Position numbers and translations under genes: made by a program | In this document: positions 1-64,000 of the stretch, in pieces | Numbering within the stretch: position 1 is the first letter of the stretch | Layout: every line of letters begins with the position of its first letter | The notes under the pieces: generated by a model | Database searches by the model: none | What the model saw: the letters and a program-made list of their open reading frames with translations, nothing else | Told to the model about the DNA's origin: nothing | From: Cyanidioschyzon merolae | Lineage: Eukaryota | DNA length: 64,000 nucleotides | Assembly (NCBI GenBank): GCA_000091205.1 | Contig: AP006499.2 | Strand: one strand, 5' to 3'

Positions 1-69
1 ACTTGACCACAGACGCCTCCTAGAATTTTTGGACCGGCCACCTACTACTGGTTCCAACTTATTCTTGCA

Positions 70-2176: not shown

Positions 2177-2209
2177 TCACTCGCATAACTTTCCTTTTTA
2201 ATTTTTTTT

Positions 2210-2274
2210 CTGAAAAAGAACGCACCTTGAATGCTTCAGGTATAAACAGCGAAAAATCACTTGAATACACTTAC
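2210..2274 (-). other. Putative 65-nt spliceosomal intron in the 5' leader of LA (GTAAGT...TTTTTCAG)
   Basis: Minus-strand reading is CTCAAG|GTAAGTGT ... GCGTTCTTTTTCAG|AAAAAAAATT. An intron of identical length with a GTGAGC...AG boundary sits at the homologous position of L+ (61441-61505). Confidence 0.5.
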
Positions 2275-3119
2275 TTGAGGGTTGGAATACGATTGAACTG
2301 AAAAGCATACTTTGCTACGACTTCAATGCAAATACACCGCGTGCAGCAGAACAACACGCTCTTGATACCGATCGCGTTTCCGTTCAAGAGCAGCATGCGC
2401 GAAGTGTCTCGTGTAACTGGCTGATGTCTCTGGTGCACGTGTCCAGCCCCCTACAGAAAAAAAACAGAGACTCACGACTAACTGGCAACGATATGACAAT
2501 TTCTTTCCCCCCTCTAAGGTAAACGTTAAAAGGCGAAAAGGTTTCCATATTGTCGAAAGTTTATTTTATAGGCGAAACGTCCCGCGAGCCGGACGTGTCT
2601 GCCAGACCAGTGCTTCATGCGACCCCAGTGGAAGGTGCTTGCTGGAAACCCGAGCAACTCGTGCGAAATGCAGTTTATTATGAGACTAGGAGCGGGTATG
2701 CTGCGTCAGGGCGTCGGCCTGGTCGCAGTTATCTCCTTACATATCGCTTGGCGCTGCCGCAGGCACTAGGTCTGTCTGCAGAGCTTGCAGGCTCCCAGAA
2801 AGATTATGTACTCTGGCTCTGTATCGGGAAAAGCGCTCCTCGATTCGATGCCCTCTGTGGTACGGTAACGCGGTTTTGTCTCCGCGATCCATCTGTTCCA
2901 GCGGTTTAGGCGCCACTACGGGTGCTCGTGGTAGGTACTCGCGCACGCTAGAACGTAAAAACCGACCAGTATGTCCGAGATGAAGTGTAAGAGATGGATC
3001 TTAGTCGGCCGGGGCGGGAAGGGCAGCATGATGAGCGCTTCCTCGAAAGCCACTACCCATCCATCCCGAAATCTGGGATCCATGGTAAATGTAAACGTTT
3101 GTCATCGAAAAAAAACAGA

Positions 3120-10860: not shown

Positions 10861-12156
10861 TCGTAGTCAAACCATGTGGGCTCACCAACGCATGGGTACT
10901 TTTAACAACATCAAGCGTTGTTTTGGGACGGCCTCTTCCACTCCTTGCCGCTGGATTTCGTTACCTCACCGCCACCAAGATGAGTCGTGACGCCCGCTAC
11001 AAAGCGCTCCTAAAATAACCGATACCACTATGCAGCGCATTCATAAACCACTGCGCGCTTCTCCTTTTCTTACGAACAGCACGCTCAAATACCCCATTCA
11101 TCTGGCTCTCCGTCTAGCGGTTCCATGGCAGCTCGTGGGCGCACCAGATCGCGCCCCTATATCGCGACGACGAACACCCGACGTCGGCCGTTCACGAGTG
11201 TTCTCAGACACTCATGCCGAAAGCCCAACGGGGTTCTCACGTCAAATACTCCTCTCCGCTCTCATCGCACGCCCCCCTCTCTTCGCGCCCGTCGACGAGC
11301 CGGCACTCAACAGCGACACCGTATGTCTCTCCAGCTGCAGGCTCGCTACGGCTCCCGCGTCTCCCGTTTCCATGGGAAAGGGGCCTTGGACGCGGGCGCG
11401 CGCCGTCGCAGCGGCCGCCTCCAGCAGAGTTTGCGTCACCGCTCTGCACAGCGGGAGCGTAGACGGATCGAACCAGCTGGGCTGGATATCTCCAGCGCGG
11501 ATCTCCCTCTTGGTGCCCCGCCTCATCGTGGTCAGCATTGCGTTGCACGGATTCTCCCGCGGACTGGACAGCGTGCGCGTGCGCATGCGCCCGCCCAGAA
11601 TACGCGCCGTGCGGATCGCCCCGAGCGAGCCCGGGGTCTGTCGGTACCGCACGAGACGCCGAGACGGAACGAGGGCGTCGAGGCGACCCTTCTGCATCCG
11701 CCAACGACATGTATCGGGCGACGAGGGAGGCCCTCACGCGCCATGGAGCGGCCCTCGGTGGAGGAGCTTTGTCGGACATGTTGTCACACCTTACCACAGC
11801 CGATCATGGCAGCTACGTTGTGCGTCTCGAGGCTGTACACAGCGAAGATGGCAATGGCAAGCAAAGCATATATCGTGACGACCGCCTCTGGATGAAATGT
11901 TTCAAGAACACCTGGTGGCAGCGAAATCGGGACTTGAACACTGCCATCAGCATCCTTCAACAGTCGACAACGGACTCCGAGGGAGCGGAGCGTCCAGCAC
12001 GCTGACTGGCGGACATAAGAAAGGAAAACGGAGCATTTGCAGAAAGAGTCTGCGAGGGCTGGTGTGCATGACAGTACGATGAAATCCAAACCTGTGCGAG
12101 TACGCCCGTGTCAGGATGCCTGTTCCATTTCATCCCGACATGCGTGTTGAACGCAG
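10861..12156. repeat. Direct repeat R2 (1296 bp), partner of R1
   Basis: See R1. The E-family module lies at 11784-12156 (-). Confidence 0.85.
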
Positions 12157-15138: not shown

Positions 15139-16640
15139 TGCGCCACTACATCCATGTCAGAATAAAATTGAAGAGGTCCACTTAGCCGACATGGGTGCAA
15201 ACATCAGAATCATTTCAGAGTAAAACAGAATAGGTTCATCGCGCAAGCTTGGATCCGCACTCGCTATGGTTACGGCTCTTCCTAATGGCATCAACGCGTG
15301 CCTTTAGAGGCTTTTTCTATGACAGCTTCCCTTTACGCTCTTGTATCTCGGGCTCTATACAGGCCGACCTCCGCTTTCCGTCGAGCTCTGTTGCCAGCAG
15401 TCGGAGGATATTTATGGCAACATATTCGTTTGGATTCCGCCGTTTCCGGCTGCAGCAGACGCATTTCACGCACAGAGTGAAGATGAGATCTACGTTTCTC
15501 TTGCCATTTTCATACTCTTTGCACAAGGCCTCGATACGGTATTCGTAACCTTCAGAATTGCCACTGTTAACGTGTTTCAGTGTGTCCAACACAACTTCTC
15601 CTTCGAGGGCTAGCCTATGACGTATGAACGCTTACTTCATCGCTCGGTGCATGCCCTTGACAGGTACATAAGGTTCACCGCCCCGCTCCGATGTTCTCCT
15701 CGGTTTTCGCGCCCGGTACAGTTCCTTACGATCGCGGACCTCTTGTGAGCGATTCTCGCGGTGAGGGCACTGCACGCTGCTCGTGCAAGCCCAAACTGTT
15801 GTGTTTCAAACATGGATTGTGGAACACGATATTGTCCATGATCAAACAAGTATCGAAAGGAAAATTTAGGCTGGAGGGGAATTCGAGCTGTGTCGGTCCC
15901 TCTACGCTCGCTTCGTGCACAGCGGTGACGCATTCTCTAGTCAAAGCAATCACTGGAATGACTCAAGTCCGAGTCCAAGACGATTCTTCGTGTAAGAAGA
16001 ACAGACGGCAGCCGATGGGAGCGTATTCCTTGGTAGGTATCATGCTGCTGCCGTCGAATAGTGTTTCGTCGATGGACACCAAGAGCGGAGGGTTTGTCTT
16101 TCGAACGAAGTCCAGGATTTGATGTGAAAGGTTCGAAAAACAAGTGGCATGAGCTTTTTAACGACTGGTCAAGGGAGGCTGCCGCGTTTTTTCCTTCCTC
16201 AATCTAGCTACCCGAATTGATACCCCCACGAGTCGCGTTGAAAAGTGACCATCGAAACCTTGAAGAATGCGTTATTTGAGGACGTTACGCATATGGAAAT
16301 GAGCCGACTGGAGGGATGGACGTATGAATCGGATCATGACATCGGAATTTTACGAATACATTGTCGATGGGATCGCGAATCATTTCGATTCACGTGGCGG
16401 AACGAACTCAAGCGACAGAGAGTTTGAGGAGCCACTCCAAAATGACCGCCGAAAGTCCTGAAACTTCGAATGAATCCTCAAGTCCTTGCTGCCGCACTTC
16501 GAATGTCGAGGCTGTACTTCAGAAAACCATTCGAAAGAATCGAAATTATCTGAAGAGAGCGAGAAGCTGAGTGTTGCAATCAATTCTGAAACAGGTTTAG
16601 GAATCTTCTCTTCGGTGCTGCGAACGAATATTCCTTATCT
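15139..16640 (+). repeat. Unclassified repeat family E, copy c (C/H-rich module plus downstream conserved segments)
   Basis: Homologous to 40450-41885 at the nt and aa level. The module at 15170-15613 and LWNTILSMIKQVSKGKF...VRVQD at 15691-16122 match KDLWNSMLSMVEQMLEGKF...VRVQE at 41064-41324. The motif TGCTGCCGCACTTCGAATGTCGAGGCTGTAC is shared. Confidence 0.55.
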
Positions 16641-23054: not shown

Positions 23055-24505
23055 CTGCACGCTTTCTGGAGCGAAAAGTTTCGCGACCATAGAATGTACA
23101 CAAATAAACCTACTCACAGAAGACACCCAGCCTTTTTTGACGGACTGCATGCTATCGGCTTCAGCAACCCCTTGCACAGTTTGAGCCTTAGCGGTTGCGC
23201 GACAAAGTTCGCTCGCGTCACCTCCTCGTGTCTTGTCTTCAGCACTGCACATCTTTTGGTATTGATGGCGACGTTACCGTCTCGGTTCACGAAATCCTTG
23301 CGTTTATTGCCTCTGCTTGAACTCAGCATTGCAGGGATTGCTAGAGGTCCTGCCTTCTATGAAATCAAAGTCTCGTTATCGTCTCGTTGAGCAAACACAT
23401 TTTCTCGCCTTTTTCCGTTCTTCTTCTTTATCACTCGCTCTTCTTCGGTTGGTGGTCGGCGTGAAGAGGATCTTTTTTTTCGTTCCTTTTTTGTGGAACC
23501 CGGCGACACCGGGCCTCCAGGATCCTTGACGTCCGTGACCATACCTATTCCTCGGATTTTTTTTATTTGAAAATGAACGCACTTCTTTATGCCCTTAGAT
23601 GAGGGCCTTCCTGGAGCGAGCAGGATTTGCGGAACAAAAACTACTTGTGCCCCGGTGTGTCACCGTGCAGAACGCTCCAGGGACTCGCCCAGTGGAGCGA
23701 TCATTATGTTAAAGGATACAAAACACTCCTTCGATGAGGTTGAAACACGTAGAGCACGGAGGAATGAAAAGCAGCGCTATCTGGATAGAATCTGCAAAAA
23801 CTCGAACGCATCGGAAATGGTGCAATGCCACGTTTTCCAGTAGAGGGAAGTCGGCGGACGTCAGGGAAAAGTCTTCAATGATTCGAATTTGCGGGTGCTG
23901 TTGTATGAGTCTCCTGTACGAGCGAAACTGAGGCCGTCAAATGGATCAACTGCAGCTAGAATAGACGATGATGTCCTCGTTCTCCTCGAGATCGATCGCA
24001 CATACAACGAGCCCCCTCTTTTTGAATACCCATATACGCTTCGGCCGTTTCGTCCAAAGCAAGTCTCATTTACCGGCGAAACAAACCGCCATTCCCGTGC
24101 TTCATACCGATCGCGACGTTTCAGGGATGCTGTCGTAGCGATTTCGATGGACGATGGTCGTGCATGAGCTAGGACTCTTTTTTTGCGACTGTATCCCAGT
24201 GTTTTCAGTACCACATGAACAAGTTTTTGAGAAACAGATACACTCTTGGCGGCTACTATCGTCGCTTTTGCCTCCCGCAGGGTGATCAACGGGTCGTATT
24301 TCCACCATGGACCGCAAAGAGTCTTTAAGAATATGGCTCTTGGCGCGGAGCGCGTATCCTGTGATCTTTCAGTGATCCTCAACTATCTGAGAACTGCCGT
24401 ATGACTGACCTAAAAGAAAAATACGGTCCCCCGTGCACAATGAAGTAAGGAATATATATCCTCCAGGCAGTTTGCCTTCGAATTATACGGTACGATGTAA
24501 CTTGA
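23055..24505 (-). mobile_element. Short TnpB/Fanzor2-like element copy S2 (degraded), with a K/R/E-rich insertion module
   Basis: The 5' region (minus) matches S4. The interior has ILAAVDPFDGLSF (RuvC-I-like). The C-terminus is KRKDFVNRDGNVAINTKRCAVLKTRHEEVTRANFVAQPLRLKLCKGLLKPIACSPSKKAGCLL, and the conserved 3' core CTGAAGCCGATAGCATGCAGTCCGTCAAAAAAGGCTGGGTGTCTTCTG is the reverse complement of 23117-23166. An extra module (23376-23582, MRSFSNKKNPRNRYGHGRQGSW...RASDKEEERKK) is shared with S5. Confidence 0.6.
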
Positions 24506-24935
24506 TATCGATCTGCCGCTCGTACTGCGAAAAAGCATTCGATGACACGCATCAGCGGTGGAACAGAATTGACCTGAAAGTCCGCAGAAATCGAACAATC
24601 TTTCAAGGTTTTGTCCATGATTCTAAAATGTGATATATTGGTCCATAACGCATTGCACGCCAAGCGATCGCGAGCGCCGCTCCCCATGTAACGAGCACCG
24701 ACGCGCGTCTGACGCCGAGCCCGGGCCAAAACTCGAACCGGTGCTGCGCAGCGACGGCCGCGACACGATGTGGCGAATGCCGGCGTATTCGTCGACACTT
24801 TGTAGACGCTCTAGCGCAGGCTTTACGTAACGAACTTTTTCTGATCGAAAACCAAAACTCAGTTTGATCGTACCTTGTGCACGCGTGGACAGTAAAAACT
24901 TGTATTGGGACCGATAATTGTCATAGGACGCGACC

Positions 24936-27211: not shown

Positions 27212-28570
27212 GAAACCTGGGCAGGCAGTGAACCTAGCAAGCCGGCTTCAAAGGTTTGTTGCACGTCGAAGCGCTCATGAAGAAACCGTTTATCGCCCAA
27301 CACCGTCTGCGCAAGCTGGAACCAAATGAAGCGTTCTAGGATGTTTTCAGGATGTCGTACTGCTAAACTGTCAGCGTTGCGTCCGCAATGCAGCGGTTTG
27401 TGCTGCGCTCTATGATCGATGAAACCTGTGCGAGACAAATATGCTTCCGAGCGACCATCAACGGTGCAGGTCATAGAGCCAATCCATACCTGACAGGTCG
27501 AGAAGAGCATCGATCGATCCTCTGGCAATGCTCCATAGCGAAGACATGTGAGCTAGACTGCGTGATGCGCGACACCCCGAGGATCCATTCGCCCCCGGTC
27601 TTGGAGCGCCCACATGTGAGGTCGAAGATAAAATCACGAGCGCCCAGGTTCTCTTCAGGTATCTCCGCTTTCTTCCGTTGTGTCTATCTCCGGGAGGGAG
27701 CTCCCGTAAACCCAGAAACAACGCGGTAATGAAGAATCCATCGCACAGGACTCGAATTGCTGCTCGAGTGTTGCAACATTCGAGGCACTCAACATCGGGG
27801 TCGTGCATCTGCTTGACATCGCGACGTTCGTGGTTGCGTGCCTTTGCCTATTCGGAAGCTCTAGCGCACGCATGTACGGTGTGCGTCAAGCCGTCACTCC
27901 CTCATACATGGGAAAGCCCTGCTCTCTCTGTGCTGCATCCGCAACTTCGCTATAGGCGCTGTTGCGGACGCTCACGATAGAGTCGGTGTGTGATGGAACG
28001 TACGAAATGACTTGTATCTCCGGGGGGAATAGCGAGTGCTGGAACTTGTAGGTGGGTAGAATTACGGGCGCTTTCCCGATCGCCACTATCAAGCTCAATC
28101 GGAGATTCCTGGTCGCTAGAAAAGTTCTCTCAACAAGCAACGTACAGCGTTCTGGTTCGATGTATGCGCAGCGCCGTGTTCACGTCAGGTTCTGGCGCAG
28201 AAGCGTCGTATGGCTGTTTCCACCGCCGTGGCGGATGCCTTGCTCCAAGCACCAGGTATACGGTCACATTATTGGTACTGACAGGGAAGATGCCTCTCTA
28301 GCGCCGATTCCAACTACGAGATGCTACGTACTGAACGACCTGTGCTGGCGTTTCAGCATACCCAGAGCGACGCCGCATCGGATGCTGCGGAACGTTCTTC
28401 AGTGACATCCTGCACGTGGGTGAAACTGGACGCCCTCTCGGGGACGCGCACTGCGCGCCATCTGCGACACACACCGCGTCCGTTCTGGGTCCGTAGCTGT
28501 GGTCAGTGGGGTTTGCTTGACGACCTGGCGCTTAAAGAGAGCGCAGCATAAATCCGGGTCTGTCTGCTGA

Positions 28571-29230
<660 letters not shown>

Positions 29231-30232
29231 CCTGTAAGGCGATCTTGGCGGTGCAGCACTGAAGGGTTTCAAGGCCCTCGGTTAAATGTCTCAAAGTTCC
29301 GCGTACTAGGCGCGGCGCACGGAAGGCGCGCAGTCGTGTTCGTACCCTAGACTGGTACAGGCTGTGAGAATCTCTTCTCTATCATGCATCCGTCGCAGTA
29401 CGTTCTTTAAGGAAATGCATTTCTATCAAAGGACCTCGGTGGTCCTGGTAAACGAGTAGGGCGATGGTTCCGGAAAAGGCTGAAGGGCGACGGTGCTGTG
29501 CCAGCGCCGACCGCCTTCTTCGTACTAGCGCCCGCTTCTGGCTCTGTAACGCTTGCCTTAGCACTAGCAGTCGCTGACGTCGTGCTCGCTGCACCATTTC
29601 CAGTGGATGCTCTGTCATGTGTTTGCACGCTCTGTGCGGAAGCCGTTTTTGGTGGTTTCTCCGCCGCACTTGACGAGGACCCCGCAGTGCTACCGGCATC
29701 CGTTGGTACCCGAGGCACTACTCCAGTCGTTTGTTTCCTCTCAAATGCTGGCAGCTGGCCGTTGCGAATACGACTGCGAGCTGAATCAGCTCCGGGCATT
29801 GGAAGGCGCTTCTTGCCAAGTTTGCCGCCTCGAGTCAATATCCAGCCGTCGCCGCCCCAGACTCGGTCTGCGCGAAGCACCAGCAACGGGCGGCTGTTCT
29901 GCGCAGAGATCGAGCTCCGCCAGCTAGTCTCGTGAAGTGCATGCGCGCAAAACCCGATGACACCTATTGAACCGAGTGTTCCAAAGGACTGCAACGCACT
30001 CAACGCAAAAGCTTGGCACTGCATGGAGAGGCTCAGACACCCTGAAGGAATTGATGAATAAAGATCAAGCGCAGCTAACTGTGGAGCCGTAGCGGCGGTC
30101 GGCGCTCTGCGGCACACGCGGCAGTGGGTAGTTTAAGAAAAACAACAAAGCGGACATTCTCTTGCGGTGTCCGTGTATAGGGTCTTTCATCTCAATTTCG
30201 TTCCGCCTCTGCTACGTTCTGTAGAAGAAGGT

Positions 30233-31620
30233 CGAAATTATTGTGTAATTAACCTTTTAGATCGTAGACGAATTGTCAGTAGGGTACGTATTCTTTACTA
30301 AACAGTCCACGGAGAACTGCATTCCTTCTTCATGTCAGACATTCCACATCACGCAGATGGTTGCGGAACACTGGAAGACAGGCATAGACGCGCTCTGCGT
30401 CAAGAACCGATATTCTCCACGTGTGCTTCCAATCAACGGTAGAACACGATCCTTTGATCACCTTTTCCGGAAGTACAAAGCGACGATAATAGATGCCACC
30501 AGCGCCTCTGTTTCTAAACAGCTTGTTCATGTGGTCCAGAATACACTAGGATACTGTCGCAAGAATGTCCTAGTTCAATCACCGTCATCTCCCATGGAAA
30601 TCCCAGTTACAGTGCTCCTTGAACATCGAGATCGGTATGAAGCACAGGGACGTGGGTTTTTTTCCTCAGTCAATGAGACTTGCTTCCGATGAAACAGTCG
30701 GAGAAGATACGGATATTTGCGGAGCGGGGCGCCCGTTCCATATACCATCGAATTCGAGACGAACGACGAAATCATCATCCGTTCTAGTTGTAGTGGATTC
30801 TATTTACGGCCTCAGTTTCGATCGTGGGGAAGGCTCATACAACAGCACCAACCATTTTGTCGAATCATTGACGATTTTTCTCTAACATCTGGCGACGTCC
30901 TTCTACTGAACAACGTGGCATTTCACCAGCCCCCTCGCGGTCGAGCGTTTCCCGATTCTATCGGGATAGAGCTCGTTTTCATTCTTCCGTACGCTCCGTG
31001 ATTCAACCGGAACGAAGCAATCTTTTGTATCCTGAAATGCAACGATTGCTCCACAGCGAGATTCGCTGAAGCGTCCAGCACATGGTAAAACTGGGCCACA
31101 TTATGTACCATTTGCGCAAGTGCTTTTTCTTCCGGGAAGGGCCCCACCAAAGGCCATAAAGAAGTGCACTCACTCTAAAAGAATTAAGGGATGAGCTGGG
31201 ATGCACACTTCAGATGCTCGAGATTGAGAAAAGACTGCAGAGCGCTTTGGCGACAGAAATGTACGAAGACATGATAGAGCACCAAATGGCACAGAGGGCC
31301 TAAGTGCGCAGATTCCTCGCATAGGTGAGTACAAGCGGAAGCAAGAAAGGCATGAAGTTCGTGACCCGAGATTATAACGCTGCTATCAATATCAGGAGAT
31401 TTGCGGTGCTGGCGACGAAATCCCGGAAGCTGACGCGAGCTTCCTTTAGAGGGTCAGCATCTCAGGCTCGAAGTATGCTGGGATAAATACTGAAACCGAT
31501 AGCAGGCAACCGGTTGAAAAAGCCTGGGAGGCGTCTTCTGGTGGATATGCATATACCCCCACATGGCGGTGCGAAATTTTTTATTTCACTGAGGGTATGT
31601 ATTTTGATGGACTTAAATAG
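30233..31620 (+). mobile_element. Short TnpB/Fanzor2-like element copy S3 (degraded), with an intact RuvC-III motif
   Basis: The 5' end CGAAATTATTGTGTAATTAACCTTTTAGATCGTAGACGAATTGTC matches S1. The interior has VLVVVDSIYGLSF. The C-terminus is LRDELGCTLQMLEIEKRLQS...KKGMKFVTRDYNAAINIRRFAVLATKSRKLTRASFRG. The 3' core at 31491-31552 is CTGAAACCGATAGCAGGCAACCGGTTGAAAAAGCCTGGGAGGCGTCTTCTGG. Confidence 0.65.
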
Positions 31621-37723: not shown

Positions 37724-38427
37724 CTATTGTGGCGAGTTGGCTTTTGCCCAGGTTGCGACCAAGGCAAGCTCACGACTATATTTCCACAGCAGTGCTGGCT
37801 TTCCTCGAGCGAGAGCAACCTGCGCGCAGCAGTCTCAGATCCGACTCCGCTTCCCCGGGGCGCGTAGCTTCTAGAGTGGTGAAAACATTATTAACACAAT
37901 CCGTGACCTGTATTGAAATTGTGCAAGCTAACCAGATTCAAGTAACGGGTAATAAATATAAAAATAAATCTTATCGTCGTCATTCAGGACGTCCAGGAGG
38001 GATGAAGATTCGTTATTTTTATCAAATAGGTGGAAAAAGAGCATTGGAACATGCAATTAAAGGTATGCTTCCAAAAGGTGTGAAAGGTCGCCAATTGTGG
38101 CGAAAAATTCGTATAGAAGCTTAGAAAGAGTTATGTATGCCATAGGAAAACGTAAATGTGCCATCCCCGGGGAAGCAACCAGCCTGTATCGTGTACCAAG
38201 CTGCAATCCATATTTGTGCATATTAATTCTAAACATTCCACGATTGAACTGGATCCAGTGCAGCCTCGAATCGCGATGCCACCCTGGCGGCTAACCTGCT
38301 GCGCGTACCTGGCAGCTAAAAATGATTCTTGTTCCTCTAGTTGCTTTCAACTTAATTCAGTTCCAACCCCGCTGTATAAAATCGAATGATTTTTCTCAGT
38401 GTAGAGCACGAGATCGAGGTCACTATG

Positions 38428-39788
38428 TAATTTATTGTGTACATCTTAGATGAATAGCCTGTAGGATATATTCTTTAGTAAACAATCCCTGCAGGACTGT
38501 ATTTATCCTTCAGGTCAGTCATACAACAGTACTCAGACGGCTCAGGAACACTGAAAGAAAGGAGTATATGCGCTCCGCGCCAAGTACCGATATTCTCAAA
38601 GCATGGTTGCGGTGAATTGTAGGAATTGGACCCGTTGATCGTTTTTTACGGAAAGCAAAAGCGAAGATAATAGCGAACACGGGCGTCACTTTTCTCACGA
38701 GCTTGTTCGGGTGGCGCTGAAAACAGAGGTATACTGCCGGAGAAAAGAGCCCAGTCTCATGCACGGCAATCTCCCGCTGAAATCGCCTCAGCAGAACTCC
38801 TGGAACGTTGCGATCTGTAAGAAGTAGAGGAACTCCGGATCGTTTTCTCTGTCAATCAGACTTTATTAGGAAAATACGGTCGGTGCGTGTATGGGTATTC
38901 GCAGAGCAGGCAGCCGGTTGTATGTAAGATGAAACTCACAGAGAACGAGGATATTATCATCTATTCTAGCTGCGGTGGATTTACTTGGCGGCCTCGGTTT
39001 CGCTCGTAGAAGAGAATCATGCAACAGCACCTGCTACGTCGAACCATTGAAGACTTTCCCCTGACGTCTCACGACGGCCTTCTATTGGACACCGTAGCAT
39101 TGCAACATTCCCCTTGCGTTCGAGCTCTTGCCGATCCTGTCTGGGGTAGAGCTGCTTTTCAATCCTTCATACACTCCCTGGAAAAATCCAATCGAAGGAA
39201 TGTTTTCTATTGTGAAACGTACTGATCGCTCTACTGGACGAATCGCTGAAGATCTCAGCACATGGTTACACCGAGGCACATGTCGCATGTCGTCCGCAAG
39301 TCCTCCTCGCTCCAGGAAGGTCCTCACCTCAGGGCCTAAAGATTTGCATTCATTTTCAAAAACCAAAAATCTCAGGGATGAGCTGGGGTGCACGCTTCAC
39401 AAGGTCGAGATGGAAAGAAGGCAACGGATCGCCTCGGCGATGGAAATGGACAGAGACATCACAGAGCTGCAAGTGGCATTGAGGGCGCGCATTCGAGGAC
39501 TCCTTGCACCGATGAGTATCACGAGTGAGAAGAAATGCATGGAGTTCGCGAACCGAGATTTCAGCGCCATCGTCAATATCAGATGATGTGCGGTGCTGAA
39601 GACAAGACCCGAGGAGCTGACGTGATCCACTTTTTGGGGCAGTATATCAGGCTCTAAGTGTACAGGGATAGAAACTGAACCTGACAGCAGGATATCGGTT
39701 GAAAAAGGCTGGGGCATCCGCGAATGGGCGAATATATACCATCCATAGGCGTGAAATGTGTATCCTTTTTCCTGCAGTATGTATTCAT
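38428..39788 (+). mobile_element. Short TnpB/Fanzor2-like element copy S4 (degraded)
   Basis: The 5' region is shared with S2. The C-terminus is LRDELGCTLHKVEMERRQRIASAMEMDRDITELQVALRARIRGLLAPMSITSEKKCMEFANRDFSAIVNIR*. The 3' core at 39675-39725 is GAAACTGAACCTGACAGCAGGATATCGGTTGAAAAAGGCTGGGGCATCCG, followed by GCGAATATATACCATCC. Confidence 0.6.
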
Positions 39789-40449: not shown

Positions 40450-41885
40450 GTGCGCCGCCACCGATACAGCATCTTCGGCTCCTTTATGCATGCACGCAGA
40501 TACATCCACGTCAAATTCAAATGGAACCGGGCACATTCACCTAACACGGATGTTTACTCTAAAGTTTGGGTCCGGTCCCTTTGCCATCAACACCAGCATT
40601 TGCGGCATTTTTACGCGACTGCTTCCTCTTGCTTTCTCTCACCGCCGGCTTTAAATATGCAGGTCTTTCCATTTCTCCAGCCGCGTTGCCAGAATTCGAT
40701 TGATCTGGATGACAGCATCAAGGTCCTGATTATGATGCTTCCGGCAGCTGCCGACGCAATTAAAGCAGATGCGGAAGTTGCTATCTACACCCTGCTTGCC
40801 ATTTTCATCTTCTTCTTACATCGCCTCGGTGTGCCCATTGCAGTAGATGCACTTGGCTGCGGTATAAAATTCCCATGGTTACACCACATATTCTCCTCAT
40901 AGGGCGGCCCTCTGAAGCGTGAACGTTTACTTCATCGCTTGCAGTAGGTCGATGAAGAGTACTTGAGGCTCCCCTCGGTTGCGTTCTCCGTTTCCGATCC
41001 CGATATCATGCCCCAAGATCATAAGCTTTTCCGGGGCAATCACATAAACGAGCTATCTGTCCGATGCGTGAACGCGCACTGTTCCATTCGATAAAAGATT
41101 TGTGGAATTCGATGTTGTCCATGGTGGAACAAATGCTAGAAGGGAAATTCGCGCAAGCGATCGAATCGAGAAATTTCGATCCGTTTACGCTCCATTCGTG
41201 CAAATTGTTGAAGCACTGTCGACTAGAAGCGATCGCTGCTATGATGCGAGTCCGAGTCCAAGAGCCTTTTCTATGGAAACAGAAGATATGGAATCATCTG
41301 AAAGATATCCATGTAGAGGTATGACGCTGGTGTGGACTGCATTTTCGTCGATAGCCACAAAAAGATGAATGATTCGTCTTCCGGAAGAAATTGATTATAT
41401 GGAATGAAATGCTCAGTATGTGTTCGGCGTGAGCTCGTGAAGAAATCGTCATGGAAGGTGACCGAGTGTTTTATTTCGTCCATAGAGCAGCGCGGATTGC
41501 TGCGCCCAAGATTTGCGTTGAAGTAGAAAAAAAATTCTTCGAAATTCCTTATTTGACTATGCAAGAGGTAATAAAAAGATAAGAAAGAATTCTTTTACAC
41601 ATGGATTGGATGATCAAATTGTTTATTCGAAGCACCGTCGTTTGAGGGTGTCACGAATACTCTTTATAACGGTGACGTACCAAAATTCCAGGGGCAGAGT
41701 GTCGACAGTGCTACTCCAAGAGAACGATCGCAAACCCCAAACTGCTTATGCATCCATCAGCCCTTGGTGCTGTGCATCGAATGTTAAGGCTGTACATCTA
41801 TAAAGAAGATCGACAAAGTCGACATGCATAAAGCGAGTGCGCGGCTCAGTTTCACATTTAAATTTCACTTCAGGATTATATCAAC
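40450..41885 (+). repeat. Unclassified repeat family E, copy b (C/H-rich module plus downstream conserved segments)
   Basis: ORF 40423-40902 (HVKFKWNRAHSPNTDVYSKVWVRSLCHQHQ...LPAADAIKADAEVAIYTLLAIFIFFLHRLGVPIAVDALGCGIKFPW) and 41064-41324 are homologous to copy c (15139-16640). Copy b carries an AT-rich insertion at about 41500-41640. Confidence 0.55.
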
Positions 41886-42439
41886 TCTAGAGGGCGTACT
41901 GGGCATTCGATAATTGTCCAAAAACGCAGCGCGTCACCTCTGCCAAGTTGTGAAATTCCATGAAGTACAGTATGCGTTCCGTCATGCTGTCGCTTCCACT
42001 AGAAGCACCCGCGGTAACATTCCGTGGGAAAGGATGCGCGGCTGCGCATTGCATGCAAAACAACTTGGTTGTGAGAGAAGAGATCGCTGTTTGAAATATC
42101 CATCACTCTGCATAGCCAACACGGATGCAAAGCACAAGATCTCCAGCGAATCTTCTCGTATAGAGTGTTCTTCTGTCATGTCGCCGTCATTAACAAGAAG
42201 AGCCCTTGAATCCACATATCTTTGGAGCCCAGTAGAGATGCGCAGCGCTCTCGAGCGCAGTATCTGGCGAGGATATCTCTCCTCATCCTGGGTTCGGGGC
42301 TCTTTCGCAAGCTCCAGACGAGACTCTCACTCACGAATGTAGAATGACTTAGCCTCATCGTAGTTCATCACTTGCCACGGAAAATCGTTCCCTGCGTATA
42401 CATGCGACGTTGAAACTTTGCTGGATTAACGAACAGTAC

Positions 42440-44800
42440 CACACCAGCGACACGTGCCAGTTGGGAATCGAGTGCGATCACTCCTGGCGGCTGAGATTCT
42501 TCTCGACGGTCGTCTTCACCGTTTCAGCGCAACGCCGACACTGAGTAATGAGCGATTTCCTCGAAATTTCGCTTGAGACAGAGCTGCTGAAAGCTCAGGA
42601 AGCACGAGAAGTTTCCGGACGTTGGTCGAGATCTTCAAGTCACGATGCAGAAACCGCTTGCCGGAATGCGTAAAGTTGGAATCACAGCCAAGAAAGCATC
42701 TCATCTTCATCCATGATGGCATCTGACGGTGAACCGGCGTACCGAATAATATCTCGTACACCCAGTTCAGTTTCAATGTATTTTTTTCGACCTGTTCCCG
42801 CAGGCGCCCATGCACATGTTGCCTGGATGCCGTAAAAAACTGATCGATGAGACTCACATAGAATCGATTCTAGCACTTGTCATGCGCTCTCGTTGAAGGC
42901 GTGGGAGTGAAGCCTTTTAACGGTCCAGCACGTTCATAATAATCGGATACCATCAAACGACACGATTTCTCGGTCATATTCTTTCCCAAGTCATTGAAGA
43001 AGTTGGCAAATGCGCGCTGCCCTGCCCTGTACAATTAAAACCGTTGGCGGCTCGAGCACGTTTCCATATGCGCCCAACAGGAATCGTACGCATGAGCCAC
43101 TTGGACGCATTCGCATTCTCTGACTGGAGAAAGCAAAGCATTGTCCCTGCTCGACAAATTGCCAAGGGCGTTGAGACTGGTCCTGAAGCTGCCATTCCGC
43201 CCATTGGTATTCCTAATAGCGCGCATCATTCTCGAGCCCAGATGGTATCGACCTCTGGGAAATTGCTTTTCTTGATCTACTTTCTGTTCATGTATTTAAC
43301 TTGGCCCTCTTTATTTAGAGGTACCCTGGCAGCCATGGCGGTCTTAAATCGGCGATCTATGCCCCTGAAATGATCGTTCTATTCATCTTCTCTAAAGATT
43401 AAAAACGAGTCATGTTGCTCGACTCAGTCCTAGGTTTCACGAGTTTCTTGATGTCCTCCCAGCTAAATTCTCTGCCGGTCTCCGTGGTCCATGTAAAAGC
43501 TTTCCGTTTCACCCCTGTAGACGAGAAACCTTGCACGAGCTCCGCCGATGCTCTTCCCGATATTGTTGGAATGCGTCGTGGTTTCTCGCAGAGGGCAACT
43601 CTATCTTCACCTTTCTCGCTCCATGGCTGGCCAGCATGAACGTTGTTGCTCAGCTTCACATCCGTTTTCCCCGCAGAATCCAGACGCACCGTCCAGACGC
43701 ACTGCTCCGAGCGTGTTACCGAAACTTGCCCTCTCTATTCATGTATCCTCTATTTCTTAACTAAATTTTCGCTTTCTGCTCCGTCGCGAGCATGCCCATG
43801 AACCGAAGCGCGCCTTTTCGCTTCCTCTCTCGCATGAGTTGAGGAGCAACGCAGCAGTCGTGGTGTTTTGAAAGCAGAGAACGATTTTGCGAAGACCGCT
43901 ATCACGGATGCGAATGACTCTTCTGTATCATAGATCATATAAATTGCGTTTGACGGTAGAGTAGACACCTTTGACTGGACTGGGCCAGGGAGAGTAAATA
44001 CGCACGAAGAGAAGCTCAAATCTTGTCCCAGCAGTGTCCCGCTAACCGTTTTGAGTAATATGAAGCAGTGTAATCTAGGAACAGGAAACAGGTATGTGGG
44101 AAGGAGCCGCCCCGAGTTATGCCTCGAGAAATGATGAGCTATTTAATGATTCATTCAGTTTGACCATTCGATTCATACACCGCCGAGGCTGATAATGGCG
44201 GATTACTCGCTTTTCTAGTCTTCAGAAATAGTTATTTGCCTCTTGCTGAGTGCCCGTGTAGAGTTCTCGCATTTCTCTCGAATGCAGTCTCATCTAGTGA
44301 TTCGAAAACCCATCTCCAATCTAATGAGCGCTCCTATTTTAGTACCAATTCTACACCATGCTGCTCAGCGCGCGATGGTTTCCAGTAGAAGCGCGCGTTT
44401 TGCTTTATACATCCACGTCTCTTCGCCACCGTCCGTTCCAACGATGCGAGAAGCTCATTTCCTGTCGATTTTTCAATGTTATTTCTTAGGGAACGTATGG
44501 AGTGGCGTGAATCGGCTACGGGGCAGCCTTGCACATAGTGATCGGATGGTTCTGTTTCGTCGACGCGACCTCCGGGATAAAAGCTAAGATATGGATGGTC
44601 CATCCCCTTGTTGATCCATTGAACGACTAACCTCGTCGAGTAAGTTTTTATTTCTCGCCAGCTAATATTGACAGTATAAAGCCTTTCCATAACCTTTCCC
44701 TAATCTACAGGATACAATACTTTCGTTAAATACCCGCTAGAAGAGCAAACATAACCAGTAAGGTTGCGGTGATCCAGATAGTCCAGAATTCACTGCACTG
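42440..44800 (-). mobile_element. Long TnpB/Fanzor1-like element copy L3 (diverged, degraded)
   Basis: Minus-strand segments align to LA/L+: 44334-44690 (YSTRLVVQWINKGMDHPYL, about the ASSGLMHLV block), 43750-44019 (...DGAESENLVKK, about GDGAESREQ), 43399-43689 (VKRKAFTWTTETGREFSWEDIKKLVKP, about VRKIEFTGETSETYWKNIFDIKHLK), 43035-43229 and 42880-43040 (VQVAHAYDSCWAHMETCSSRQRF*...QRAFANFFNDLGK, about VRVAHWDALWEEYTKPRW...QRAFANFFNQL), and 42516-42857 (RFYVSLIDQFF...GKRFLHRDLKISTNVRK, about RDFNAAINIRK). The 3' core at 42472-42530 resembles the family block. Confidence 0.55.
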
Positions 44801-51471: not shown

Positions 51472-52000
51472 TTGTATCGCCAGTAAAATGGACAACATTT
51501 CATGATCATAGAGGGAAAATATATACCTTCTCACAGACGCTTCCCAGCCTTTTTCAATCAGTTGCCTGCTATCGGTTTCAGTGTTTATCCCCGCACGCGT
51601 CGAGCCTACGAGGCTATCCCAAGAAGTTGGATCGCTCCAGCTCCTTGGGTCTCGTCTTCAGTGCGACACACCTTCTGATATTAATGGCGGCGCTGACGTC
51701 TCGGTGCAAGAACTCCACGCGTGCATTGACGCTGGTTAAACTCGCCACTGCAAGGATTGCTGGAAATCGTGCCCTCTGTGTAACTACAGTCTCGTCATCG
51801 TCCCGTCTCGTAAACACCTTTCCTCGCCTGTCTCCTCTTTTTTCTTCTTCGTCACTTGCTCTGCTTCGCTCAATATTCGGCGAGAAGAGAATTTTTTCCG
51901 TTTCCTTCAGGCAGCCAACGATGACGGCCTTCCAGGATCCGGGACTTCCATGCCCATGCTTTGTCCTTGGATTTTTTATTTCTTCAAATGAACGCACTTG
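51472..52000 (-). mobile_element. 5'-truncated short TnpB/Fanzor2-like element copy S5, closest to S3, with an intact RuvC-III motif
   Basis: Minus ORF 51614-51997: MRSFEEIKNPRTKHGHGSPGSW...RASDEEEKRGDRRGK (the module shared with S2), then ...PAILAVASLTSVNARVEFLHRDVSAAINIRRCVALKTRPKELERSNFLG. The 3' core (reverse complement of 51523-51578) is CTGAAACCGATAGCAGGCAACTGATTGAAAAAGGCTGGGAAGCGTCTGTGAG. The tail GAAATGTTGTCCATTTTACTGG matches the S1 tail. Confidence 0.6.
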
Positions 52001-52208
52001 GGGTCCATCTGCGATAAACCGCGAAAAAGCATTTGCTTACACGCACCTGGGGTCGGAATATCATTGAGGTCAAAGACTAGAAGCAGAATCCTCTGGGTAC
52101 TTACGCGGGGCGTCGTCCCTCTGGCGAACTTGCGCTCGGAGAGGCGCGCGGATTGTTTATGCAGATTCTCGCGTTTCAACGCATATCAAAAAGGTTTCCG
52201 CAGGCCTC

Positions 52209-58880: not shown

Positions 58881-60989
58881 ATTTACTTGTGTCGATGTGT
58901 AGAACAGGTGAGCAGTCCAAAGAGCACACAGCATTGGATGGGTGCGATAGCCATATGGCTATGCTGATGAAGTCTGTGACGAGGTCCCTCTGCTTAATCG
59001 CTGAGAAACTTTTCTCGTCCGATACAGTGCCTTGCATGGGTTTCGGATGTTCGGCTTGAACGCTGTTTCCGTCAAAACGCCGCACGGGTGCAACCGCACG
59101 AAACCTCTCCCAGCCTTTAAACATCTAGGGAGCACCCCCTTTGGATTCTACGCTTCTACCAGCGAGCAAGCAAGAGAGATTTTTGCTGATGATTCAGAGG
59201 CCGTCAGAATAATTAGAAGGGTCTTCCTTAACGTTTACCCGAAAGGCTGTAGCACGCCAGCTCGACAGGAGTCTTCAAAAAAGCTCAAAGTGTTGACAGT
59301 ACGTGAGCGAAGAGCAACTGCACTCATGCAAACGTCTACCCCTACACCGCATGGAGACTTTCCAGTATGCGGGATTCTTGGATACAGCATCCTCCAAACC
59401 AGTGGGAAAATGAATTTTACTTAACGCGTCCTTGAGCCGCCGCCCGCGAGGGTGCTGTAAAGCTGCGCTGCCTCTGTACGACGTGCACAGACCCGCGCCT
59501 CGCACCCGAGAGAGCCCCCACTGGAGACTAGGCTGCTGGAGAGCCGCGTGCTCGATCAAGCCAATATTCCACAGGCGTTTCCATGACTAAAGCTGGCTGA
59601 GCGAGGAAATGCCCGTGGGTGAGGTGAATTCTCTGTTCTGAGCATTGAGAGTACGTCCACATCAGTGGAAACTTTTAGAAGCTTTCATCTAAATGAAATA
59701 ATTAGTGCATTTACCTCATCGGGCTGTGCCCGACTCATGAAATGACTAAGCGTTTGAACTAGACTGTCTCATTTCCGCACCAATGAAATGGCGCTTTTTT
59801 CCCGCGGAGCTGTTTGTTCACTTACGTTGTAGCTGTATATCAACGAATCCAATCATCACTATCCAAAAGCTGAGTTGCAGTTGGATGCTGAGGAAGAAAT
59901 CACTGTAGCAATCGAGGCCTCCGTAAGTTAGACCGACCCCACCCGTGTGTCAGAATAAAACGGAACGTCGCACTGCTCGCTTTTCCCATGCCTTTCTAAT
60001 TTTAGCCCAATCATTTCTTAGATGCGCATCCTCCGCACTCAAACTAAAATAATAAAAGTTTACAGGTTCACTCGTGGTTTTTTTGGATTCTCGTTCGTTT
60101 TTCCGTGGTAGCTTGTTCGACTCTTTGTTGCTGGAATGCGTTTCTTTGTCGAAATCATAATGATTCACGACGCCATTGAACAAGGATTCGTAAAGTACCC
60201 GATTATATTATCCAGTTGATACGTCCAAGATTCCATTTTTCTCCTTTCTTTGCGTCTAGTACGATGAAACAGCGCATTCTTCAAGTGTTTGACCTTTCTG
60301 CTTCAAGACAGCTGGAGCGCGTAGCAACTTGCACCGCTGGATTGACGACGACGAAGAAAATTCGACATCGTCCCTTGAATAGCGTTTCGTAAACGCACGC
60401 CAAACGCTCACTGAACCAATCACAGCAAGTAATCGATGCGGTTCGAAAAGCAAGTCCTTCCCTCTTGATCGCCATCGACGAAACGGGATTCCGCCGCAAT
60501 TATAAGCTATCTCTCACGGGACCCGCTCCCAGAGGCACCCATCTCATTTTCCGCGCGGAAAAGGTTCTTGGACTAGAACTAGAGTCGTCGCTGCGATCGC
60601 TTCCACTCGGGATTCCGTCACCGCTTTGAGCCTGGGGGCGTACACGGATCGAGATCTCTCGAGCGCTTTCACAACCTGGAGCTTCCTTCTGGTACTTGTT
60701 TCAGCATGGTCAACATAGCGTTCCGTGAATCCTCTATCGAATAGAACAGCGAGCACTCGGGCGCGCAGCAGACATAGTACTCGCCAAGTAGTCACCCAGC
60801 TCAAGCACGTCATCGTAGAGTTCGCCGTCGGACCCGGAAACGGAGGAGCGAACGGACAGGACCCTTTTCTGGCTGTCAAATTGGCATGTGCCGAACGATG
60901 AAGAAAGGGTTCATGATCTGCAGGGCGACCCTTTGAGGAACAGTTTTCGGGTATATAGGGGAACACTTGACCACAATCAGATGTCATCG

Positions 60990-61165: not shown

Positions 61166-61440
61166 AGAATTCTGCGTTGCTACAGGCGCATATGAGAGAG
61201 ACAAGGGAAGTAGTCAAACATCATGCCCGCCAAGACTGGTATTGACGAAAGTGAGAAGCGACCCAAAGCCTAGTCTTTTCTCCCGAGTTAGAGGGTCGGT
61301 CCTCGTTTGTTCAGAAATGAGTGTAGATCTGCCTCCACGTTGGGGGCCTATTAATGAAATGATTCATAATCCGCGTCCTCCTGCTGGCAAACCTGCTCTT
61401 TCTACTTATGGTCTATCACCTCAATTTAGTTCCAATCTCA

Positions 61441-61505
61441 GGTGAGCGTCATCGAATGCTTTTTCGCAGTTTTCAGCAGGAGCATTGGAGTGCATTCATT
61501 TTGAA
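61441..61505 (+). other. Putative 65-nt spliceosomal intron in the L+ 5' leader (CTCAG|GTGAGCG...TTTTGAAG|)
   Basis: Same length and position as the LA intron (GTAAGT...CAG). A leader of about 25 nt precedes the ATG at 61531, as in LA. The upstream ORF 61242-61445 cannot be spliced in frame, so exon 1 is non-coding. Confidence 0.5.
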
Positions 61506-61530
61506 GAAATGAATAATCCAAGGTGAAGCT

Positions 61531-63678
61531 ATGGATATGCAGGACAGAGATCCTGTTCACCAAGTGTCGCCGGCTGCCAGAGAAAAGCAAAAAGCAGTGT
61601 CTAGTCCAGAGGAAAAGGAGAGGACAAGAAAGAAACGGCAGGTGGCCCGAAGTCAATGGCCGCAAGAAAGACGAATGTACGACGATACGGTGGTGATAGC
61701 CTGTCTTTTCGGACATATCACGGATACGTACGAGGAAAAATTGCGAGACGCCATCAGAAACCGTGTCGATTCGTACTCCATGAGTACTAGAAAGGCGTCG
61801 TCAGGGCTAATGCATTTGGTGATGAAGATGAACGAAAACGTGACGCACATGGAAACAGTCGCGGTTCCGGACGAGTTTTTCGACAAGACCTTTATTCGTA
61901 ACCTAATGCTTGGCACAGGCGAAACACGGAGAGAAAATAGCGGGTTCACGCCCTCCACGAAAATTATGCCGAACTCCGCTTCGAGGGTACTCGAAACAGG
62001 GGTGACCAGGATATTTACGCATGCGGAGCGATGAAGTATCTCACGAACCTGAAGAACCATTTGACGATGAACCTCGAACGTTCCATGATACGCGCCGTGG
62101 TTGCACTCTACTCGGGCCTGTCTCGCAAAGGACTGCGGGCGATTATCAATGGCATCACGAAGGATCGCAAGCATGAAGATGAGATCGAATTCGTCGACAA
62201 GAAGACGTCACGCAGGAGCACAAATGAAGCGTCTGTAATCCAAGGGGTTATAAAAGAGCGCCGTACAGTGTTGGGGCTGGCGAATCCAGTAGAAGAGGTA
62301 TCAGATATGAAAAAAATGAAGAGAGACACTATCGCCTCGTCCTGCGATATTTCGTGTTTTTGGACCAAGAGGTCGAACGCAAGAAGGAGATGAAGCTGAG
62401 TGAGCAAAAAATGAAGATTGGGAGAGACGGAAGGCTGCCCTGACGGGGAAGCGCTTCAACGTCGATCCGATATGTAACGTCAAGTCATACTTTGTGGGTA
62501 TCGATTCAAGAGTCCTCCATGGAATCATGAAGGAGATCAGTCCGGAGTTCAATGTAAGGAAGATAGAGTTCACTGGTGAAACAAGTGAGACGTACTGGAA
62601 AAACATCTTCGATATCAAACATCTCAAAACGAGCAAGCAAAAGGTATTTACTGGGATGATTGAAACCGATGGAGTAGCCTCGTGTGTGCACTATCGGCGG
62701 TTGAAGAAAGATCGGCCAGTCCCTTCGTCGGCTGCGCCCGTTACGAAGGATGAAGAAAACAATGAGGAGGATCCTGCGATGCAGGAGGTGCAGGATAACG
62801 ACCTTGTCTTTGACATGACGAAGGATGAAGAAAAGAAGAAGGCGGATCCTGCGATGCAGAAAACGCAGGATAACGACTTTGCCGTCGGCGTGGACCCTGC
62901 GAATACGAATGTCATAAGTATCGCAGTACCTAAGCGTGCGGAAAACGGTACTGACGGTAATTTACGTCAGAAAGACATGCGTCTGTTGAGATTCTCGAGA
63001 GCGAGATTCTATTGGGAATCGGGAATAATGAATGCGAGGAAGAAAATCGACACTTAGAATGCAGGAATGAATAATCACCTGGAAGCTTTGAGCGAGGTGA
63101 CTAGCCGAGGAGCGTACTATGAAGCCTTTCGGAAATTCATGGAAGTTCGTGTTGCCCACTGGGATGCGCTGTGGGAAGAGTATACTAAGCCCCGGTGGGC
63201 TCTTTTGCGAATGAATCTATACGGTGAGAGGCAGCGGGCGTTCGCGAATCTTTTCAATCAGTTGAGCGCCCTCAAAGAGGATCAAAGTCAGAGGCTGGTA
63301 GTGGCATACGGAGCACGGCGATGGAAGACCAAAAAAGGGTATACGCCAGCTCCAACGACAAGAACGTACAAGGATTCCGCAAGGCGTTTCGTCACGATAC
63401 CTCTAGATGAGTTTCGAACATTGCATACACACCATGAACTGGGGTGTACATTTCAGAGAGTGGAGATAGAAAAGTGCCAGAGGAGCCCTGAGGATATAAA
63501 AAAGTATGGACCGCTGACGGAAGAGCAAATGGAAAGGATTTCGAAAGTTCGTGGACTACTTGCATTAGTAAGTAAAACCAGTGATGGTAAGAAACGTATG
63601 GAGTATGTGAACCGAGATTTTAATGCCGCTATCAATATTAGGGAATGTGCGGTGCTGGAGAATAGGCCTCCAAAGTAG
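61531..63678 (+). pseudogene. Fanzor1-like RuvC nuclease (TnpB homologue), about 690 codons in 4 segments (61531-62034, 62031-62393, 62494-63057, 63067-63678)
   Basis: N-terminal K/R/E-rich region, then the ASSGLMHLV block. RuvC-I is DNDFAVGVDPANTNVISIAV. LVVAYGARRW lies at the expected RuvC-II position. The Cys/His cluster is HTHHELGCTFQRVEIEKCQ, and RuvC-III is GKKRMEYVNRDFNAAINIRE. A +2 frameshift at 62031, a stop or frameshift near 62391-62403 and an in-frame TAG at 63679 (PPK*TRENFIGQPLKVE...) disrupt the ORF. Confidence 0.65.
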
Positions 63679-63836
63679 ACAAGAGAGAACTTTATTGGAC
63701 AACCTCTCAAAGTGGAACTATATGAGAGAAAGTTGGAAGCAGTGGTGGATGCCCGGTCCGAAAAGACGGGGAGGCGTCTGCACGTCAGCTGGAGAGGATT
63801 TGTCTAAGGCGCGCTGATCGCCACTACTGTCCACCG
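63679..63836 (+). ncRNA. Candidate omega-RNA (guide RNA scaffold) region of L+, conserved with the 3' blocks of all seven other copies
   Basis: AAGTTGGAAGCAGTGGTGGATGCCCGGTCCGAAAAGACGGGGAGGCGTCTGCACGTCAGCTGG (63731-63792) aligns with the reverse complement of 1-62 (LA) and with the S-family core CGGTTGAAAAAGGCTGGGAGGCGTCTTCTGG. The conservation persists where the overlapping ORF tails differ in stop position and frame. Confidence 0.4.
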
Positions 63837-63870
63837 CCGGCGAGCACGCGCTCGTGCGCGTGCTCGCCGG
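63837..63870 (+). other. Perfect 15-bp inverted repeat (hairpin) CCGGCGAGCACGCGC-TCGT-GCGCGTGCTCGCCGG at the 3' end of the L+ conserved block
   Basis: Read directly from the sequence. Its position suggests a 3' structural element of the candidate RNA, a terminator, or a subterminal transposon hairpin. Confidence 0.75.
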
Positions 63871-64000
63871 ATGCCGCTCCGCGACATGAAATCCGCCACC
63901 AACCCCCTTTTCGGTTTATTGCTGAGGTGGTGGGAGTGTATTGCTCGTTTGAAAAACCGTGAATTCGGGAAAGATGCGGGAATCAAAAATTTGCAAGCCA

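Follow-up and report, generated by a model that had tools for sequence, protein, structure and literature searches.

A decayed CMe-1A Fanzor1 copy in Cyanidioschyzon merolae, its C-terminal coding tail and a candidate omega-RNA in its 3' UTR

Fanzor1 omega-RNAs and the CMe-1A family

One of the features shared by the characterised Fanzor1 loci, and known since 2023, is an omega-RNA encoded at the 3' end of the locus, where it abuts the right end of the transposon (PMC10432273, PMC10530073). Fanzor1 omega-RNAs comprise a conserved first stem-loop, a second that varies freely, and a guide, with a total length of 75-150 nt (PMC11423790). In PpFz1 and SpuFz1 the total is 75-90 nt (PMC10432273, PMC11423790), SpuFz1 combining a 75-nt scaffold with a 14-15-nt guide (PMC10432273). 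The omega-RNA of GtFz1 overlaps 17 codons only (PMC10432273).

Exactly one Fanzor1 family, CMe-1A, was described in C. merolae by Bao and Jurka (2013; Mob DNA 4:12, PMC3627910). The element is 3169 bp long, has neither TIRs nor TSDs, and is present in ~150 copies with ~80% identity to the consensus; its Fanzor1 protein is called CMe-1 (PMC3627910). The element, the consensus and the protein, including the residues that were later flagged in the block considered here, have thus been in print since 2013 (PMC3627910). That paper predates omega-RNAs, and the 3' UTR, the terminal hairpin and the S-type chimeras discussed below are absent from it (PMC3627910). There is likewise no C. merolae entry in the supplements of Saito et al. 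2023 (PMC10432273). The sole piece that had gone undescribed is a probable omega-RNA in the 3' UTR.

The DNA analysed here, called the window throughout, is a 64,000-nt stretch of C. merolae contig AP006499.2. An earlier note had flagged positions 63679-63870, overlapping the 3' end of an ORF, as a candidate omega-RNA. Part of that proposal stands, in that the interval contains a conserved non-coding 3' UTR and hairpin (63808-63870); its core block, by contrast, is coding. Taken as a whole, the explanation that we regard as very probable is a dead CMe-1A copy in which the flagged block is coding sequence and a constrained UTR is the most likely omega-RNA scaffold.

Decayed CMe-1A copies and chimeras in the window

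The window carries intron-less eukaryotic housekeeping genes, among them a Sin3-like ORF of 1551 aa and genes for Spo11/TopoVIA, NIF phosphatase, phytoene/squalene synthase, class-II DAHP synthase and a CLC channel. The ORF for DAHP synthase has 100% identity to a Cyanidioschyzon merolae 10D protein, and a tRNA scan of the window found none. Interspersed with this content are eight related repeat copies, recovered by self-blastn and tblastn where they had previously been placed. Stops and frameshifts occur along the whole length of all eight, and no intact Fanzor1 ORF is present in the window: the long copy at the 3' end, L+, is in four pieces with an added TAG, and the second long copy, LA, is broken, as are all of the short, or S, copies.

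L+ extends over 61430-63885 on the plus strand. The body of its decayed, 5'-truncated CMe-1A Fanzor1 gene, at 61430-63675, survives as four ORF pieces that retain the motifs GVDPANTN (RuvC-I), LDEFRT and VNRDFNAAINIR (RuvC-III). LA (10-3107, minus strand) is decayed yet near full length, and its 3' UTR is lost at the window start, the 3' end at 1-75 being merely cut by the window edge. It lies head-to-head with the first S copy (3107/3116). A third Fanzor1 remnant, at 42400-43175 on the minus strand, is far more divergent (31% aa identity) and lacks the block. Homology past the first stop had been claimed for all copies; alignment bears this out for seven of the eight, the exception being 42400-42530 on the minus strand, where ~42% identity is alignment background.

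The identity of the long copies was established with the published CMe-1A consensus, taken from the supplement of Bao and Jurka 2013 (PMC3627910). Its 3' 555 nt align to 63288-63842 at 88% nucleotide identity, and LA is matched at 86% over 502-10 and at 80% over 3107-2465, the latter corresponding to the 5' ~630 nt; from these alignments, the long copies are CMe-1A. The window copies resemble the published element in organism, protein C-terminus, length of ~3.2 kb, absence of TIRs and a mutual identity of ~80%. [quoted passage not shown] The stretch at 61430-63885 would accordingly represent a dead, 5'-truncated copy of the ~3.2-kb Fanzor1 transposon CMe-1A. A separate piece of the CMe-1A 5' part (TE-N2-like), the part that L+ lacks, lies at 27908-28132 on the minus strand.

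Judged by its sequence relationships, the window ORF is a Fanzor1, as the earlier, broader assignment to TnpB/Fanzor had it. A profile of 70 diverse homologs searched against the PDB matches three Fanzor1 structures, PpFz1 (9cf0, E 3.3e-21), SpuFz1 (8gkh, 3.3e-13) and GtFz1 (9cer, 7.5e-7). Only this profile of 70 diverse representatives gave a PDB match: phmmer with the window protein, and then a profile of 30 close homologs, found none. Pfam searches of the window ORF pieces and the long homologs gave no TnpB/Fanzor match, though one sub-threshold Cas12f1-like_TNB match was seen in a distant relative; Pfam PF26935.1 is annotated for many homologs in the protein database (P0002, P0003, P0005 and others). 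The family is large, a word-indexed search with the window protein returning 184 relatives at 50-80% identity and an exhaustive profile search 1486 related cluster representatives. Of the motif given by Bao and Jurka, D-X(125,275)-[TS][TS]-X-X-[C4 zinc finger]-X(5,50)-RD, the elements GxDPGNTN, DEFRTS and NRD are found in the consensus. The zinc-finger stretch of the consensus, THHELGC...EKC, has two Cys and two His only, and in the window copy the motif TS is changed to TL. An AlphaFold2 model built on a shallow alignment reached a pLDDT of 33, too low to be of use. Within the L+ ORF there is a 64-nt tandem duplicate (62743-62806 and 62818-62881); it encodes acidic DNDxVV..KHEExKEA repeats, whose number varies among homologs (P0002 versus P0003).

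The S copies are chimeras of ~60-120 nt of CMe-1A, ~1 kb with DDE_3 remnants, the last ~80 Fanzor1 codons and a 3' UTR of their own. The first, at 3116-4483 on the plus strand, shows the DDE_3-like remnant, the ~80 codons and the separate 3' UTR. Others lie at 30229-31536 and 38344-39774 on the plus strand, the latter with a frameshift within the block, and at 23104-24583 on the minus strand; 51481-52088 (minus strand) is a short deletion derivative that keeps both ends. The DDE_3 (Tc1/IS630-like) transposase matches are weak and fall short of the Pfam cut-off, with E values of 5e-4 to 2e-3. The motifs quoted for the S copies, and the abrupt stop of homology after them, were found roughly as described before. 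Similar chimeras occur in metagenomes (L025:6410-7711, L061:4575-5936, L065:4835-6195), and all S-type chimeras are decayed. They form no part of the 2013 CMe-1A description (PMC3627910).

Two further repeats were seen in the window. A 1.27-kb sequence is present at 4484-5748 and 10861-12146 with 98% identity, beginning exactly at the end of the first S copy; its ORFs have no Pfam match, and the repeat may represent either a recent segmental duplication or a further mobile element. A dispersed family with 64-69% identity (15817-16390, 60153-60724, 41079-41271, 60558-60749) is unrelated to the Fanzor ORF and flanks two of the long copies.

A handful of JGI metagenomes yielded more than 444 related stretches. 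One locus, L060 (Ga0080006_1163603), has an uninterrupted 747-aa CMe-1-like ORF at 831-3149, and a second locus (L073/L066) is 99.2% identical to it with a different flank, which suggests that the element has transposed recently in a hot-spring population of Cyanidioschyzon. Another metagenome locus, L020, corresponds to the 3' end of the window. Family statistics given below refer to 51 non-redundant copies.

The C-terminal coding tail and its variable first stop

The flagged block is ordinary coding sequence, the last 42 codons of the decayed CMe-1A Fanzor1 gene. This ancestral C-terminal tail, TRENFIGQPLKVELYERKLEAVVDARSEKTGRRLHVSWRGFV, occupies 63679-63804 on the plus strand and includes the flagged core at 63733-63783, where the core strings quoted for L+ are indeed present, as are those quoted for the S copies. 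Read in the frame of VNRDFNAAINIR, L+ continues as ...ENRPPK*TRENFIGQPLKVELYERKLEAVVDARSEKTGRRLHVSWRGFV*. The published CMe-1 protein ends in ...KLEAVVGGRSKKTGRRLHVSWRRFV (also quoted as ...RPPELTRENFVGQPLKVELYEKKLEAVVGGRSKKTGRRLHVSWRRFV and ...EKRPPELTRENFVGQPLKVELYEKKLEAVVGGRSKKTGRRLHVSWRRFV), and the flagged block falls inside it. The same frame reads through the block in database homologs and in most of 80 metagenome loci, and the uninterrupted 747-aa ORF of L060 includes the tail. S copies read LKPIAGxRLKKxGRRL in this frame, with LKPIAGCRPNTV*RRL in the copy at 3116-4483, LKPIAGNRLKKPGRRLL in that at 30229-31536 and LLKPIACSPSKKAGCLL in that at 23104-24583; they would be older chimeric relatives that have kept this coding tail and its frame.

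Codon-level statistics agree with this reading. Among the 51 copies the tail is open in the ORF frame in 39, the other two frames being open in 4 and 2. Diversity in the tail is 0.228 at third positions versus 0.144 at positions 1 and 2 (p=0.001), a periodicity confined to that phase; the flagged core alone gives 0.230 versus 0.139 (p=0.016), and the ORF body 0.256 versus 0.106. The block had been proposed to be specially conserved at the DNA level, and its conservation to go beyond one fixed coding frame. Neither proposal held. The core has a mean diversity of 0.169 and the ORF body one of 0.156, and at four-fold degenerate sites diversity is 0.252 in the tail versus 0.289 in the body, so that the block overall has no excess synonymous-site conservation among the 51 copies (p=0.22). 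Nor is the block better conserved than the ORF in pairwise comparison: S copies share 0.67 identity both in the block and upstream, L+ and LA 0.72 in the block versus 0.83 upstream, and S and L copies 0.55 versus 0.63. The block looks conserved past its stop because the copies belong to one family, with ~70-88% identity throughout, and because the tail is under (weak) coding selection.

The stop that precedes the block, an in-frame TAG at 63676-63678, would on this evidence be a nonsense mutation, with the TAA at 63805-63807 as the real stop and with active lineages having kept the tail under (weak) protein-coding selection. In the published consensus this codon is TTG (Leu). Across the 51 copies it is the most variable codon of the 3' ORF (TTG 10, TAG 9, TGG 8, CTG 8, TCG 6), with a stop in 20%. 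In the profile match to structures, the SpuFz1 and PpFz1 proteins terminate at about the equivalent of 63676-63678. Since the codon sits about where other Fanzor1 proteins end, it is apparently a hot spot of stop gain and loss, and the ~42-codon tail may have been gained through loss of a stop. The different stops of the copies had been taken as a sign of selection on the nucleotide sequence; they are better described as pseudogene lesions across one fixed, otherwise open frame. More generally, in families of decayed copies a scatter of stop codons is no proof that a sequence is non-coding.

That said, protein constraint is weaker in the tail than in the ORF body, the ratio of third-position diversity to that of positions 1 and 2 being 1.5-1.65 versus 2.1-2.7, and the last six tail codons have no codon periodicity. 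The wider protein family mostly terminates ~31-33 aa past NRDxNAAxNI, which makes the block core a lineage-specific C-terminal extension; it could once have been UTR. Its basic stretch GGRSKKTGRRL (...GGRSKKTGRRLHVSWRRFV) could be an NLS. Three four-fold sites in the tail, at 63720, 63741 and 63753, are invariant, and 63740-63747 is complementary to 63823-63830. Given the relaxed protein constraint, the invariant sites, this complement and the lineage-specific extension, an RNA element that partly overlaps the tail is possible.

A stronger form of that idea is that the block itself (63679-63790) is an omega-RNA scaffold overlapping the 3' end of the ORF, with selection on nucleotides or RNA structure and dual use as coding sequence. 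There is precedent, in that the omega-RNAs of TnpB and GtFz1 overlap C-terminal coding sequence (PMC10432273). The weakened protein constraint, the few invariant synonymous sites and the 8-bp complementarity of 63740-63747 to the conserved UTR run would all fit, as would a core common to the L and S families despite their different UTRs. We nonetheless consider it unlikely. The single-frame periodicity, the 39 open copies, the lack of overall synonymous-site constraint and the ordinary level of conservation, all given above, tell against it. In addition, the block on its own is no more stably folded than shuffled sequence (z=-0.77), and the 3' regions of the S copies fold no better than shuffles (z +0.1 to +1.6).

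The compensatory base pairs expected of a structured RNA were also sought in the block. Candidate stems in the tail and UTR showed no covariation, 150-237 of 500 shuffles reaching the observed values; changes in these stems mostly break pairs, in numbers indistinguishable from those in shuffles. RNAalifold on the tail and UTR gave a 3-bp stem only. Two stems considered individually, the long-range 63740-63747/63823-63830 and GCGTCT/AGACG, were rejected for want of covariation, and S copies do not have the UTR partner of the former. Conservation in one coding frame and an absence of covariation, the outcomes that the earlier note had itself named as counting against an omega-RNA, are thus what was found for the block.

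The 3' UTR, the terminal hairpin and the right end

Constraint on the nucleotide sequence itself is found beyond the true stop. Past the ancestral Fanzor1 stop (TAA at 63805-63807, TAG or TAA in most copies), the plus strand carries a small hairpin, GGCG-N7-CGCC, at 63808-63822, whose stem is almost invariant and whose 7-nt loop is hypervariable. It is followed by a strongly conserved non-coding run, ACTACTGTCCACCG, at 63823-63836 (family consensus ACTACTGTACAC..), and by a terminal hairpin with a perfect 15-bp stem and a 4-nt loop at 63837-63870, at the right end. The bases at 63871-63885 are either the last of the element, being similar to those of locus L005, or flanking DNA. Conservation beyond that expected from coding, not found for the block at 63679-63804, is found for 63808-63834: diversity over GGCG (63808-63811) and CGCCACTACTGTACAC (63819-63834) is 0.10 versus 0.256 at third positions of the ORF body (p=1e-4). 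Hypervariable positions, at 0.55, are the 7 bases between these two segments and several bases at 63835-63843.

This region also folds. The z score of 63805-63885 is -3.75, and none of 200 shuffles folds as well. The terminal hairpin differs in sequence among copies, for example TCGTTCGA-CTT-TCGAACGG or AACGTTTTTC-TTTT-GAAAGGCGTT, and in 42 of the 51 copies, versus 27% of control windows, the terminal stem reaches 8 bp or more, with a mean MFE of -18.5 versus -9.2 kcal/mol. In 44 of 51 copies G-U pairs make the sense-strand form of the hairpin the more stable one (ddG -4.9 versus -1.6 kcal/mol in controls). Within hairpin class 1 no significant changes on both sides of the stem were seen, in copies that are only ~15-20% diverged and give low power; the hairpin is kept across different sequence classes, with thermodynamic support.

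The right end of the element was localised by comparing copies. In long copies homology had been thought to end at 63790; it runs on to ~63842, or past the hairpin to ~63870-63885. The two 99.2% identical loci, L060 and L073, diverge immediately after the hairpin, which places the hairpin at the right end of the element. The published CMe-1A consensus terminates inside the hairpin, and other copies share 5-15 more bases beyond it. Between the 5' and 3' ends no TIRs were found, and the 5' ends hold no inverted UTR 16-mer of the kind expected for a Helitron2-type asymmetric TIR. Of 33 copies, 16 have GGTG within 14 nt downstream of the hairpin, versus a 5% background, and this motif is complementary to a conserved ACAC just 5' of the hairpin, at its foot. 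Among loci L001-L080, some copies share TTTCCAGGGG or CAGCG instead of GGTG in the first 14 nt past the hairpin; from this sharing, the right end either varies by subfamily or lies a few bases past the hairpin.

The conserved UTR and hairpin (63808-63870) therefore lie 3' of a nuclease gene and end where near-identical copies diverge. By analogy with characterised Fanzor1 systems, the 63 nt past the true stop, made up of the GGCG-N7-CGCC hairpin, the ACTACTGTACAC run and the terminal hairpin, would be the most likely omega-RNA scaffold, with the small hairpin as candidate stem-loop 1 and the terminal hairpin as candidate stem-loop 2 or as a transposon-end structure. Transcripts would extend into ~15 nt of flanking DNA as guide, which, if the omega-RNA exists, would begin at or shortly after ~63871. 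We infer that this ~63-nt unit of two stem-loops is a better candidate omega-RNA than the block, and that the UTR is probably transcribed and acts as such. A search of the whole window with Rfam 15, which may hold no Fanzor omega-RNA model, gave nothing at gathering score, and permissive thresholds gave chance-level miRNA-hairpin matches only.

The unit is similar to the Fanzor1 omega-RNAs of SpuFz1, PpFz1 and GtFz1 in its layout: two stem-loops, the first conserved and the second freely varying, with flanking DNA next. It is also similar in size, with a scaffold of ~63 nt here, a 75-nt scaffold in SpuFz1 and a 75-nt total in PpFz1. It differs in several respects. The first stem has 4-6 bp versus 7 bp in solved Fanzor1 structures, the CMe-1A right end has no TIR, and there is no sequence similarity. 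With the ISDra2-type TnpB omega-RNA (IS200/IS605) the unit shares its location at the 3' end of a RuvC nuclease gene, a hairpin right end and a guide in the flank. That RNA, however, overlaps its ORF by ~100 nt or more, whereas the CMe-1A data oppose RNA-level constraint in the tail, and CMe-1A has no TnpA.

A rival reading is that the conserved UTR and hairpin are DNA-level transposition signals, a right-end structure recognised by a trans-acting transposase rather than an RNA. Subterminal hairpins of IS200/IS605 and the 3' hairpin of Helitrons are structures of this kind, and the pairing of ACAC with GGTG recalls that between guide and cleavage site in IS608. The hairpin does lie at the very end of the element, with GGTG complementary to its ACAC foot at the frequency given above, and CMe-1A is without TIRs or TSDs (PMC3627910). 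The element, however, contains no Y1/HUH or Rep-helicase gene and has no CTRR end, and the greater sense-strand stability in 44 of 51 copies fits an RNA, or else top-strand ssDNA. On balance we see a purely DNA-level role as a possibility, though not a probable one. The hairpin could have both a DNA-end role and an RNA role, as the right end does in TnpB systems.

It is less probable still that the hairpins are ordinary 3'-end or terminator elements of the Fanzor1 mRNA with no guide function. Their place directly downstream of the stop codon and the sense-strand bias in folding would suit such elements. Nothing specific favours them, however, and an almost invariant 16-nt run and the exact transposon-end position are typical of omega-RNA/right-end modules in the family. 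A last reading, which we regard as quite unlikely, is that the CMe-1A right end is an unusually small (~63 nt) Fanzor1 omega-RNA module, made up of a conserved stem-loop of 4-6 bp, a conserved linker and a second stem-loop that keeps its structure but not its sequence, and that the tail has grown over formerly non-coding sequence as a stop at 63676-63678 was repeatedly lost and gained. If this were true, with the ACAC foot pairing with the outside GGTG, the module could double as an IS200/IS605-like ssDNA end in a eukaryote.

Our preferred reading, a constrained UTR beyond a coding tail, moves the likely RNA module ~130 nt downstream of the site first proposed. C. merolae is a genetically tractable alga of acidic hot springs. 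CMe-1A copies number in the hundreds in hot-spring metagenomes, and at least one of them has an uninterrupted 747-aa ORF. With a tractable alga and such an ORF at hand, a heat- and acid-adapted Fanzor1 with a ~63-nt candidate scaffold would be directly testable.
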